DNA of 60,632 nt from Candidatus Rifleibacteriota bacterium. Lineage in GTDB: Bacteria; Muiribacteriota; Ozemobacteria; Ozemobacterales; Ozemobacteraceae. The DNA lies in contig JBNJGH010000001.1 in the NCBI GenBank assembly GCA_051747585.1, positions 1 through 60,632 of the forward strand. The letters run 5' to 3'. Position numbers: made by a program. Shown here in pieces: positions 57,001 through 60,632 of the stretch (position 1 is its first letter; each line of letters begins with the position of its first letter).

Positions 57001-60000
57001 GTATGGTTATACCCAGCGGTAGATTTTATGAATCGCTTGACTATCTAAAAGCGGGGAATCTGGGGTTAAGGCGATTGCAGTTTATTCTTCCCAAAGAAGG
57101 CGAACAGTCTCATCTCGCTTTGATCGAAGCTGAGAGATTCTTTAACGGCAAACATGAAGCTGTTGCCAGCATAGCTATTCACAAAGCCGACGGTAGCTAT
57201 AGCGATGAGCTGAAACAGCTTTTTTCTGCCGGTTTAAAAATAGAGAAATAAAAAAACTGTTCCAGGTGCTGAACCCGGAACAGTTTGAACGTCTATTTAT
57301 TATTCTACCGTTGGTGGGAGATCATAGAGAATGTCATCCCATGGGTGGCGATAAAGTGGAGCTTTTTGTCTGTTTTGATCCATATAATGGCCAATCATAC
57401 CTATTGTTCTGCCAAGCAGGAAAAGTCCGTTGAGGCCACCGCTGTCGACAACTCCCTGGATTCTTTCTTCAGACCAGCCAAGGCCATACATCATATCTAC
57501 CGATAGAACTCCAATACAGCCATCCACATTGAGAATAAGCGTGTCTTTTTTGGCGGTAGTAAGTTTTTCGACTTCTATGGCGTAATCAAGCAATCTTGTT
57601 TCAGGAAAGTTTTTCTTTGCAAAATCTTTGAGTAAAACTACTCGCATATCAGGGTTTTTAAGGCTTTTAATTCTGTGGCCAATTCCCTGAATTTTAATGT
57701 TATTTTTTTTCATTTGAGCTATAAACTCGTCGGGTTTAAGCTCTCTTTCAGTGGCGTCTTTAAACATTACCGCCGCACCGGCTACAGCTCCGCCGAACCT
57801 GGGGCCAATGGTAAGAATGCCTGAGGCAACAGCACTCATAAGGTCTCTGCCGGCTCTCGCCGTAACTATGGCATTATGAGCGCCAGAAACTGCTGGGCCA
57901 TGGTCGGCGCAAAGCTTAATAACCATTTCCATGAACTGAGCGGCCCAGGGCGGCAATTTTTCTTTGAACCAGAGCAGGCCAATGGTTTCGCCGACAGAGT
58001 AATTTTCTTCGATTACTTTGCTTATTTTATGGCCGGCGTAAAGAAGTTCTTCTTTTGAGTCATCGGCAATGGTGCAGGTAAAATTGGTAGGTTTTCTAAC
58101 CATGTTTCTTGCTACTGCTTCGGCATAGTCCATGGGGATAACCGGAGGTTCTACTTCAGGAGCGGGTTTTACTTTTCCTTCGCTCACAAGCTTATCAAAA
58201 GTAGATTTGATTGCTTTATCGTAATCGTCAAATGAATCGGGAACAACTACTCCGGCTTCTTTGAGGCCGGCATTTTTTGCTTCGGCAGTTTCGCGGCTTG
58301 CATCGGCTTTGGCACCGGCATGGCCGAACTGAATTCCTTTGGGCATGTGCTTAATCGAGGTGCCGGTTACCCACATGATCAGTGGTTTTGAAATTTTACC
58401 GCTTTTAACAGCTTCGACTATTTTCCATTCTTCTTCGCCGCCAACTTCACCAAGGCAGACAAGCATTTTAATTGCAGGGTTGGCTTCATAGCGCAGCAGA
58501 TGGTCAAGCAGGGTTGAGCCGGGGAAAGCGTCACCGCCGATTGCTATGCCTTCAAATAGACCGTCGGTGTTGCGGGCAATGATGTTGTATGCTTCGTTAG
58601 ACATACCGCCGGATTTACTGACGAATCCGACAGAGCCGGGGCGGTGAAGTTTTGAGCTGATAATGTTTTCAATGGTCCCGCCTGTGTTGGCGACTTTAAA
58701 CGCGCCGGCAGCAAGTCCGCCCACTGTAGCCGGGCCGATGATGATTTTGTTTTTTTCTGCGGCAGCGTCTCTGATGTGTCTTGCAAGTCTTTCGGGAATG
58801 CCTTCGGCAATAACTACGATAGTGCGCAAACCAGGTTCGGCAATTGCCTCCATGGTCGAGTCGAATGAACTTCTAAAAGAGGCGAAGTTGATCATTACAT
58901 CTATTTCAGGGTGTTTGCTCAGCGCAGTTTTTATATCAGGATATACTGGAATAAAAATTTCTTTTTTGCCCCAGAATACTTTATGAATGCCGGACTTGCC
59001 AGGGTTTATCATTGCTCCGACAGAAGGGAACTCTCTGCGGCAGCAGTAGTCAAAATCGAGCATGCGCTGCACAGCTTTGGTCTGCATTCCATAAATTAAA
59101 GCGGTAGTGTTTTTATCGAAAAGCAAATAATCAGGTTTTTTCATGTCTTGCTGTAGATTCCTTTCCTCAGGCGTTAAGAGCGTCTGAAACAACTCTTGTC
59201 ATATGATATTCGGGACCATGAACTTCAATTGGAACTCCAATTTTTTCGGAAGCTGCCTTGAGGTTTGCCAGCCCTTCCTGATAATTTGGTCCGCCACGTC
59301 TAACAAAAATTCTGGCGTTTACCGACTTGAGTTTGTCGCCATATTCGTTAAGTGCTTTTATAATGCCGGTAAATGTCTTGGCAACATCGGTAAAGTTGGC
59401 AATACCACCACCAAGAATCAGGGTTTTGGGGCGACCCTGAGAATCTTTTTTTCTGGTCATTAAATCAAGTATGACTTTTGCATATTCATAGGTAAGGTTT
59501 GTGCTTGGGTTACCTGAATATTCGCCATACATGGCCAGCTCTTTGGCAAATCCCAGATCACATACTGTGTCGGCATAAATTACTGATGCGCCGCCCCCGG
59601 CTACCATATTCCAGATTATTCCATCAGGGTTGAGCAGGGTAAGTTTTAAAGAAGCGCCTGACAGTGCGTCGAGTTCTCTTATTTTAATTTCTTCCGGACT
59701 CAAGTTCTGCCCGAACGCTGCGGGGAATTCAAGGTCTTCACCCCATGCTTTGCGACAAAGATATTCAGCTGTGTCGTCCAGTTTTCCTACCAGATCCAGG
59801 GGTATAATATTTTTGCCTGCTATGGCGAATGGATTAATTTCAAGATAAGCAAAATGCAGGTCAGCAAATAGCTGATACAAGCCTTTTAAAAAGTTGGCTA
59901 CCAGATTTTTGTTTTCTTTGAGTTCATCTGGAAGTTTCTCGGCGATATCTATATTTTTTAAACCTTCAAGAACGGGAACATGAATTGAAACAACTTTATC

Positions 60001-60632
60001 CCAGTTCTCTTCGACGTTTATGCCGCCTTCGAGCGAAAAATAAATTACATCGCCATCGGCAGATGTTTTGATTGCGGCGTAAAACTCATGTTCGTGTTCG
60101 ACACAAGGCTCGATAATAAAATGAGTTAAAGTTCCTTCTATGCCGTTAACTGTTTGTTTTTTGCCCAGTCTCTCTTTAATCCAGTTCTGGGTTTCGGCAA
60201 AATCTTTATTTACCAGAACAAGACCGTGTTTGCCACGTTTGCCGAACAACTGGTCGGGTTTGGCAACCAGTTTTTCTTTGGTCAGCCAGGGGTTGTCTTG
60301 TTGTAGTTTTTCCCAGTCTGTGTCTTTGCTAACCAAGACGATTTTTCCGTCATAACCAATGCTGTCTTCAAGATAGGCATCCAGATGCCTGGCAAGCAGT
60401 TTCTTGCCGTGATATTCCCTGATTCCTCGTTGAGCCATTGAATAATAATCTCCTGTTAAATAATGAAATTTAGGCTGGTCTAATGGGTATAGCGCTTAAT
60501 AAAAGCGCATGTCAAGTATTCTTTAAAAGTAAAAAAGGTTGGAAATTTTCTGGTCGCAAAACTGCTTTCAAAAAAATGATGTGGCGGTTGGGATCAAGAA
60601 AAAATCATGTTTAGTGCTTTGTTTAACTTTTG

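Follow-up and report, generated by a model that had tools for sequence, protein, structure and literature searches.

ATP-citrate lyase (ACL) in the absence of a full citric acid cycle has already been described, with a patchy distribution, in the parts of the literature covered here. In hypoxic animal cells, glutamine is carboxylated reductively through IDH1, aconitase and ACLY; these are the same three reactions as in the genome studied here, in the direction that we favour for it, but the animal route serves lipid synthesis across compartments and citrate synthase is present. In Desulfobacter postgatei, ACL is reported to form citrate and ATP within an oxidative citric acid cycle (Moller et al. 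1987, via 10.1101/2025.03.31.646503 and PMC8085960), which is the use that an earlier note on this DNA proposed for the present organism. However, D. postgatei has a complete respiring cycle that pulls 2-oxoglutarate, whereas our organism is a fermenter with three steps only, and a complete oxaloacetate-regenerating cycle of the Desulfobacter type was not found in its genome with E. coli queries. Cloacimonadota of Ace Lake are described as fermenters without citrate synthase in which ACL is clustered with aconitase and isocitrate dehydrogenase (IDH); unlike the genome studied here, they have OGOR, fumarate reductase and partly succinyl-CoA synthetase, and were read as running a reductive TCA cycle (PMC8542988). 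Mitochondrial ACL, aconitase and NADP-IDH, with neither citrate synthase nor malate dehydrogenase (MDH), are reported for the anaerobic rhizarians PCE SSF and Brevimastigomonas, whose authors state both direction readings weighed below (10.64898/2026.09.23.753574); the rhizarian enzyme differs in that its setting is a eukaryotic organelle, one that also has OGDH and succinyl-CoA synthetase.

Among solved structures, the closest system is that of Methanothrix (Methanosaeta) concilii, whose ACLY-A/B (6HXI/6ZNW) is the best solved full-length match of both chains, and identity to Methanotrichaceae loci is 55-60%. ACL is the only PF00285 and the only PF00549 match in five Methanotrichaceae genomes and, as in the genome studied here, neither Si-synthase nor succinyl-CoA synthetase was seen in genomes of the Methanothrix family. 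Their HMGL-family set is as expected of a methanogen, plus a 572-aa pyruvate-carboxylase-B-like chain, which as a putative pyruvate carboxylase B could push oxaloacetate. Judged by gene content, an ATP-forming use of ACL would be nearly forced in Methanothrix, which differs in being an acetate-grown archaeon with an aconitase-family gene after acl.

ACL without citrate synthase is already known from other anaerobes, and each of the two direction readings has been published for organisms other than this one. Glutamate fermentation through a reversed cycle is said to occur in Acidaminobacter, according to an unpublished remark in a review; in the partly accessible literature searched it was not found, for Acidaminobacter or more broadly. 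For Riflebacteria, neither direction reading and no link to ATP-citrate lyase was found in the literature searched, whose reach ended short of the main genome papers and supplements; the word "citrate" is absent from the main text of Hao et al. 2018.

Results

The aclAB locus

The window, the whole stretch of 60,632 nucleotides that was analysed, belongs to the genome of a Riflebacterium, in 330 contigs and 93.55% complete (G000). It ends with the aclAB operon on the minus strand, with the following features:

60449-60454, minus strand: ribosome-binding-site-like purine run in the sequence, 10 bases 5' of aclA
59167-60438, minus strand: aclA, ATP-grasp/citrate-binding chain of ATP-citrate lyase (423 aa; PF24948, PF16114, PF08442; 525 bits to 6HXI_A)
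59145-59166, minus strand: aclA/aclB spacer of 22 bases with a purine-rich run, consistent with a two-gene operon
57300-59144, minus strand: aclB, CoA-binding, CoA-ligase and citryl-CoA-lyase chain (614 aa; Pfam and alignment to 6HXI_B)
57254-57286, minus strand: terminator-like hairpin of 14 pairs between aclB and a convergent methyltransferase gene (consensus match only)

A hairpin scan of the region found nine terminator-like structures versus 4.7 ± 2.0 in shuffles; a promoter scan was at chance level (4 versus 5.4 ± 2.2). The flanking genes in the window, for a methyltransferase and a histidine kinase, give no functional clue. For aclB the ATG at 59144 was taken as the start, as it aligns with residue 1 of 6HXI_B; a longer frame from TTG 59192 overlaps aclA.

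The Pfam architecture of both chains agrees with the earlier note, with 268 bits (PF24948) and 262 bits (PF16114) on AclA and a partial PF00285 on AclB (model 158-355 of 357 only). AclB is alignable over its full length to 6HXI_B and human ACLY and keeps H275 (human H760), E114 (E599), H415 (H900), H490/R491 (H975/R976), R501 (R986), D541 (D1026), R579 (R1065) and R599 (R1085), the phospho-histidine and lyase-module numbering of the human enzyme being that of PMC10115795 (H760, E599, H900, R976, D1026, R1065). All of these are conserved in each of 106 aligned chains except R491 (90/106). Among solved structures the M. concilii enzyme 6HXI is nearest for both chains (525 bits for A, 842 for B), followed by human ACLY (408 and 762), with Chlorobium-type ACL at 148 and 406; this corrects the earlier label of a plant-like two-subunit ACL, the nearest solved relative being Methanothrix, then human. 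AclB reaches 842 bits against ACL versus 113 against SCS alpha and 90 against CCS, SCS models lie far below cut-off, and the same is true of all synthase models, PF00285 falling short of the full length of an Si-citrate synthase. The closest loci are Riflebacteria/Ozemobacteraceae records (76-90%), and in a public record the chain of R. amylolyticum carries the name "ATP citrate synthase, beta chain". Judged from sequence, AclAB is an intact two-chain ATP-citrate lyase of the Methanothrix/eukaryote type, for which we infer activity, cofactors and reaction direction. In a quick, midpoint-rooted tree of 50 chosen loci and the window, with eukaryotes left out, the chains from Riflebacteria fall into a single group with support, adjoining three chains from Myxococcota; G030, which represents a different family of the phylum, has an ACL far removed from them, and Methanothrix ACL lies on a separate branch.

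Citrate enzymes in the genome and its relatives

We confirmed the claim of the earlier note that, of the enzymes recognisable in this genome, ACL alone connects citrate with oxaloacetate and acetyl-CoA. AclB was the sole PF00285 match. Home-built HMMs for Si-synthase and for the HMGL family, which includes Re-citrate synthases, were run unfiltered over all 18,094 six-frame pieces and matched only AclB and an OadA-like chain, which upholds the claim that neither type of synthase is present. Citrate lyase was likewise not found: CitF had no match, and E. coli CitC/D/E/F/G/X/T gave no tblastn match, nor did GltA. The reported absence of succinyl-CoA synthetase, MDH and succinate dehydrogenase stood in tblastn searches with E. 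coli SucA/B/C, Mdh and SdhB (no match; MDH by E. coli query only), SucD (AclB as sole match) and SdhA/FrdA, which matched one gene on contig C29, labelled L-aspartate oxidase in the earlier note; E. coli GltB, Ppc and ScpA found nothing. Aconitase (C2), monomeric NADP-IDH (C231), oxaloacetate decarboxylase (OAD) alpha/beta, PEPCK and malic enzyme are present as stated, each on another contig, aconitase and IDH being unlinked to aclAB. The five congeners are alike, each with AclB as its one PF00285 match and without CitF.

Among 51 family genomes, 35 carry ACL (one AclB-type match being a contig-end fragment), two a full synthase-family gene (G006 and G018; one G006 copy is a methylcitrate synthase), 14 neither and none both. 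In the 32 family genomes that are at least 90% complete, ACL occurs with monomeric IDH in 22, alone in three, IDH alone in one, and neither in six; these tallies are not statistics, because related genomes are not independent. The three with ACL only, counted by monomeric IDH, are G024 with a dimeric IDH, G050, and G014 (94% complete, 2 contigs), in which ACL and aconitase are present while neither IDH family was found, and where gene loss or an assembly gap may be responsible, both being compatible with synteny. These data support co-occurrence of monomeric IDH with ACL across the family, ACL travelling with aconitase and IDH; G014 departs from the pattern that the earlier note gave for most of the family. 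The view that most of the family shares the pattern is correct as to ACL and the missing synthase, but CitF was found in 8/24 family relatives. An ordinary citrate synthase had been claimed for other families of the phylum, but a full-length one is found in only 6/16 of their genomes, from 3/7 families.

Three enzymes in one metabolic slot

Comparing which enzyme accompanies aconitase and IDH within one phylum in a three-way manner is a contribution new to this analysis. In G027 and G033 the order is synthase-acn-monomeric idh, with 57-59% identity to the enzymes studied here, and in G030 it is acn-aclA-aclB. G028 has acn-icd-citD-citE-citF plus citXG-citC and neither synthase nor ACL, and G007, from the same family as our genome, has aconitase, IDH and citDEFXG, again without ACL or synthase. 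An acn-icd-aclAB operon stands beside a full Si-synthase in G045, and both enzymes also coexist in G044; G041 and G043 have ACL only, and G042 a further 715-aa fusion. Si-synthase is a one-way citrate builder. Citrate lyase is described as a splitting enzyme (10.1101/2025.03.31.646503, PMC8085960), and lineages therefore use the branch in both directions. Because G028 and G007 have citrate lyase in this position, the swap of ACL for synthase is neutral on direction.

Outside Riflebacteria, this ACL type is an operon module with aconitase and IDH, not a full cycle. We examined 65 foreign loci, after removing a duplicate and 33 loci of the Riflebacteria type; contig ends truncate many of them. 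Aconitase is contained in 43, IDH in 34, both in 26 and KorA in one, and none has Mdh, FrdA, fumarase, GDH, OadA or CitT. Hosts of these loci include Myxococcota, Bipolaricaulota/Thermotogae, Thermoplasmata, Anaerolineae and Elusimicrobiota. Within Riflebacteria loci, aconitase is found in 1/32 and IDH in 0/32.

Metabolic context

The organism, which is uncultured, appears to be amino-acid-dependent, most of Pro, Ile/Val, Leu, His and Thr synthesis being apparently missing; ProBA, IlvA/C/D, HisG/D/H/A/F/I, ThrB/C, CarA, ArgH and a LeuA-type gene had no match in the genome. Genes for the fermentation of lysine, glutamate and 2-oxoacids (VOR, IOR) and acetate and butyrate kinases are present. 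The single glutamate dehydrogenase (GDH) shares with the C. symbiosum enzyme the residues F, P and D that correspond to F238/P262/D263, a pattern reported from mutagenesis to be tied to NAD preference (PMC3157743) and unmatched by pattern in 6/22 loci, and its coenzyme domain is nearest to the C. symbiosum NAD enzyme (160 vs 134 bits). It also passes the NCBIfam NADP-GdhA cut-off (698 > 536), one of two cut-offs passed; by its fingerprint it is probably NAD-type. GltB and AmtB were not found, AmtB being absent from 27/35 ACL genomes, and a GltD-like gene is paired with an NfnA-like gene, the pair probably being NfnAB. Searches for Ppc and for a pyruvate carboxylase of its own were negative too; the one biotin carboxylase adjoins a carrier protein and, with AccA/AccD present, probably belongs with AccB/A/D. 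The oxaloacetate sources found are all reversible (PEPCK, OAD, candidate aspartate aminotransferases), and a one-way source was not found in the genome.

The genome has glmSLE-mal-atuA and the beginning of a class I fumarase gene, divided between two contig ends. Mal occurs in 25/35 ACL genomes, with the AtuA-family gene adjoining mal. The idea that ACL serves as an ATP-dependent citramalate lyase of this methylaspartate route was rejected, Mal occurring without ACL in nine genomes and ACL without Mal in ten, and the AtuA-family gene lying beside mal. Codon scores among 2,885 genes place GDH in the 99th percentile, IDH in the 97th, aclB in the 90th, aclA in the 81st and aconitase in the 79th, with glmE, atuA and mal between 47 and 66; the bias is weak and silent on direction.

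Energetics

Cleavage of citrate is given as +5.6 kJ/mol for ACL and +37.4 for synthase, and ACL-driven synthesis as +9 kJ/mol at 1 mM (10.1101/2025.03.31.646503, PMC8085960). Monte Carlo draws with assumed concentrations, and with approximate assumed energies except for ACL and Si-synthase, were used as sensitivity runs rather than measurements. By this estimate, forming glutamate from oxaloacetate, acetyl-CoA and NH4+ yields about -41 to -54 kJ/mol through Si-synthase, and through ACL it straddles zero under the assumed ranges. With ACL and NADP-GDH, synthesis was downhill in 33% of draws when oxaloacetate was low, in 61% when it was generic and in 94% when it was carboxylase-driven, and with NAD-GDH, in the same order, in 9% (0.1-20 uM), 25% (1-100 uM) and 67%. 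If aspartate aminotransferase is at equilibrium, citrate formation was downhill in 2% of draws, and the ceiling for citrate made by ACL is estimated at 0.06-17 uM. On these estimates ACL makes the branch a reversible bridge, in which synthesis needs a push that was not found in the genome.

Discussion

We favour a reading, with confidence evenly poised between acceptance and doubt, in which AclAB, aconitase and IDH form a near-equilibrium bridge with a net flux from 2-oxoglutarate through citrate to oxaloacetate and acetyl-CoA. Glutamate would enter as 2-oxoglutarate via NAD-GDH or transaminases and be carboxylated to isocitrate by the monomeric NADP-IDH with NADPH from NfnAB and Zwf; aconitase would then give citrate for ATP-dependent cleavage by AclAB. 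Oxaloacetate would be turned into aspartate or PEP, or into pyruvate by the decarboxylase that pumps Na+, and acetyl-CoA would repay the ATP through acetate kinase, whereas at low glutamate and high acetyl-CoA, oxaloacetate and ammonium the same enzymes would run the reverse way. The NAD-type GDH, the missing GltB and AmtB, the auxotrophies, the missing Ppc, the energetics, citrate lyase in G028 and G007, the coexistence in G045 and the codon scores lend reductive flux this same even measure of credence; the argument from NAD-GDH and the lack of ammonium entry is new to this analysis. Counting against it, glutamate already has an exit, because glutamate mutase, Mal and the AtuA-family gene are present; moreover, no known de novo source of 2-oxoglutarate other than the bridge exists in this genome, which keeps GS and argJCDB, the GDH passes the NADP-GdhA cut-off, the energy spread crosses zero, and G014 has no IDH.

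It is a serious possibility, though one we rather doubt, that ACL acts mainly as an ATP-forming citrate synthase feeding aconitase, IDH and GDH for glutamate, with breakdown left to the methylaspartate route, for which this genome has separate genes (glutamate mutase, Mal). This was the main claim of the earlier note, and much of it stands: ACL is the sole known citrate-forming candidate, none of the 35 ACL genomes of the family has a synthase, D. postgatei offers a precedent, and synthesis looks nearly forced in Methanothrix. The gene orders of G027, G033 and G030, the single acn-icd-gdh run of G006, and genera without ACL that also lack aconitase and IDH yet retain Mal point the same way. 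Synthesis seems to be called for in G010, G022 and G024, which have ACL, an NADP-type GDH and AmtB but no synthase, and together with the Methanotrichaceae pattern this means that this ACL type can probably build citrate. What was not supported is synthesis as the main role here, given that the slot is neutral, GDH is NAD-type by its fingerprint, GltB, AmtB and a one-way oxaloacetate source were not found in the genome, the Na+-decarboxylase drains oxaloacetate, and citrate formation costs +9 kJ/mol at millimolar levels with an estimated ceiling in the micromolar range or below. The saving would be one ATP per glutamate made, presumably a small flux in an auxotroph. The reductive use that the earlier note named as a rival proved at least as good as its main reading.

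It is improbable that ACL ferments imported citrate, isocitrate or aconitate, where ACL and acetate kinase would equal citrate lyase, OAD would pump Na+ and IDH would be a side branch. G014, which keeps ACL and aconitase without IDH, would fit, as would OAD and the acetate kinases; however, 2HCT carriers were found in 0/5 genomes, CitMHS and CitT-like carriers were unmatched in our genome, no carrier or oad gene lies beside acl in the 65 foreign loci or the window, and neither a CitDEF-oad cluster nor a 2HCT/CitMHS/CitT-type carrier as in Klebsiella was found. That the bin has a citrate synthase which escaped assembly is very improbable: the genome is in 330 contigs at 93.55% completeness, and contig ends do interrupt its glutamate-mutase cluster, but a full synthase was found in none of the 35 family ACL genomes, 25 of them at least 90% complete. 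An unknown Re-type enzyme is less well excluded in relatives than in our genome, because the HMGL search of 24 relatives looks insensitive to OadA. We give hardly any credence to a reductive TCA cycle that fixes CO2. In its favour, ACL usually serves as the marker of that cycle, the genome has a KorAB-like pair (a generic 2-oxoacid oxidoreductase) and Cloacimonadota with ACL were so read (PMC8542988); against it, succinyl-CoA synthetase, fumarate reductase and MDH had no match of their own with E. coli queries and the KorAB-like alpha chain is found in this genome but in 0/4 others, with foreign-looking codon use (6th percentile).

Extending the reductive reading, we suggest tentatively, and with more doubt than belief, that Riflebacteria ferment glutamate by a B12-independent, non-classical route whose genetic signature in many unrelated peptide fermenters would be the acn-icd-acl (or -citDEF) operon, ACL there being neither a marker of CO2 fixation nor a synthase. 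NAD-GDH, reversed NADP-IDH, aconitase, ACL, Na+-pumping oxaloacetate decarboxylase, PFOR and acetate kinase would convert glutamate to 2 acetate, CO2, NH4+ and reduced ferredoxin. The gain would be one ATP and two Na+ per glutamate, more than the cell would obtain by its methylaspartate route.

Although aclAB is widely taken as a marker of CO2 fixation, its host here is a fermenter that is auxotrophic and has just three steps of the cycle, and marker surveys would therefore misread the whole family. The presence of Si-synthase, ACL and citrate lyase in the slot of one phylum offers a natural comparison for the direction of the branch. If the earlier note is right, the organism would hold an ATP-yielding citrate synthase, an enzyme proposed as useful in a biotechnology review (10.1101/2025.03.31.646503, PMC8085960); if the reductive reading is true, these bacteria would represent an overlooked route of glutamate breakdown in digesters and aquifers.

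Genes beside acl and acl records under other names

Three genes adjoin acl in many loci of the family, a conserved arrangement for whose members no metabolic link to ACL was seen; in the window they are:

54498-57251, (+) strand: lipoprotein-like gene (uncharacterised), PorV-like outer-membrane gene and TrmN-like methyltransferase gene

Two Riflebacteria-type acl loci carry Methylomirabilis and Erysipelotrichia titles (L001 and L025), with 85-87% identity and neighbours identical in kind, and L001 falls within the Riflebacteria clade in a quick, midpoint-rooted tree of acl loci. 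Probably these titles are wrong or the contigs misbinned.

Further genes of the genome under study and of G014

In three genomes, including the one under study (G000), mal is followed by the same two genes, the second of which matches no known family:

L185:251-2901 (G000 contig C264), L164:8775-11505 and L166:9107-11788: mal, AtuA-family gene, P-loop/tRNA_SAD-like gene of ~320 aa

Because neither CitE nor an HMGL lyase was found in G000, these two genes are candidates for the enzymes of the missing citramalate-cleaving step. Two further G000 loci are:

L140:6051-8596 (contig C31): KorAB-like pair
L157:4523-8820 (contig C88): argB-argD-argC-argJ

The KorAB-like pair, present in none of the four relatives checked, was perhaps gained recently, as codon use places its alpha chain in the 6th percentile; no succinyl-CoA-using enzyme was found in G000. 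The arginine genes are retained with good codon scores, while ArgH and CarA have no match in G000, raising the question of whether they may supply ornithine for a product other than arginine. In the two-contig genome G014 (L164/L165), ACL and aconitase are accompanied by one NAD-type and one NADP-type GDH, and IDH of either family was not found.

Other citrate systems and possible homocitrate systems

Beyond the two-chain ACL, the comparison genomes hold the following:

L254:2914-14711 (phylum relative G028): acn-icd-citD-citE-citF, then citXG-citC
L219:3600-7020 (G027) and L220:2150-7800 (G042): SucC-like gene and SucD-like/citrate-synthase fusion of ~715 aa
L182 (G032) and L183 (G026), family f3: HMGL-family synthase with HacA/HacB-like genes
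L178:6235-9845, L179, L180, L181 and L268: LeuC/HacA-type and Iso_dh pair
L257-L264, L266 and L267: CitF of family relatives

The G028 locus is split by a 1031-aa gene on the opposite strand, and this genome has neither synthase nor ACL. The SucC-like gene and fusion constitute a second, divergent ACL/CCS-like system, with an aconitase-family gene 3' of the fusion in G042. The f3 synthases, scoring under every LeuA/NifV cut-off, are possibly Re-citrate or homocitrate synthases.

CitF and the LeuC/HacA-type/Iso_dh pair, a combination absent from G000, occur together in eight family relatives (G006, G007, G010, G011, G013, G017, G022 and G024), in seven of which Mal was not found. All five loci inspected read HD protein-hacA-hacB-homoisocitrate-dehydrogenase-like, adjoined in two by an aminotransferase gene, and no HMGL synthase was found at the four tested. 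Most CitF copies of these relatives form a separate clade (61-92% identity inside, 41-55% to other CitF), accompanied in three loci by a fused CitD-CitE. Together, the hacA-hacB/Iso_dh genes and this CitF clade could represent a reversed 2-aminoadipate route with homocitrate lyase as its last step.
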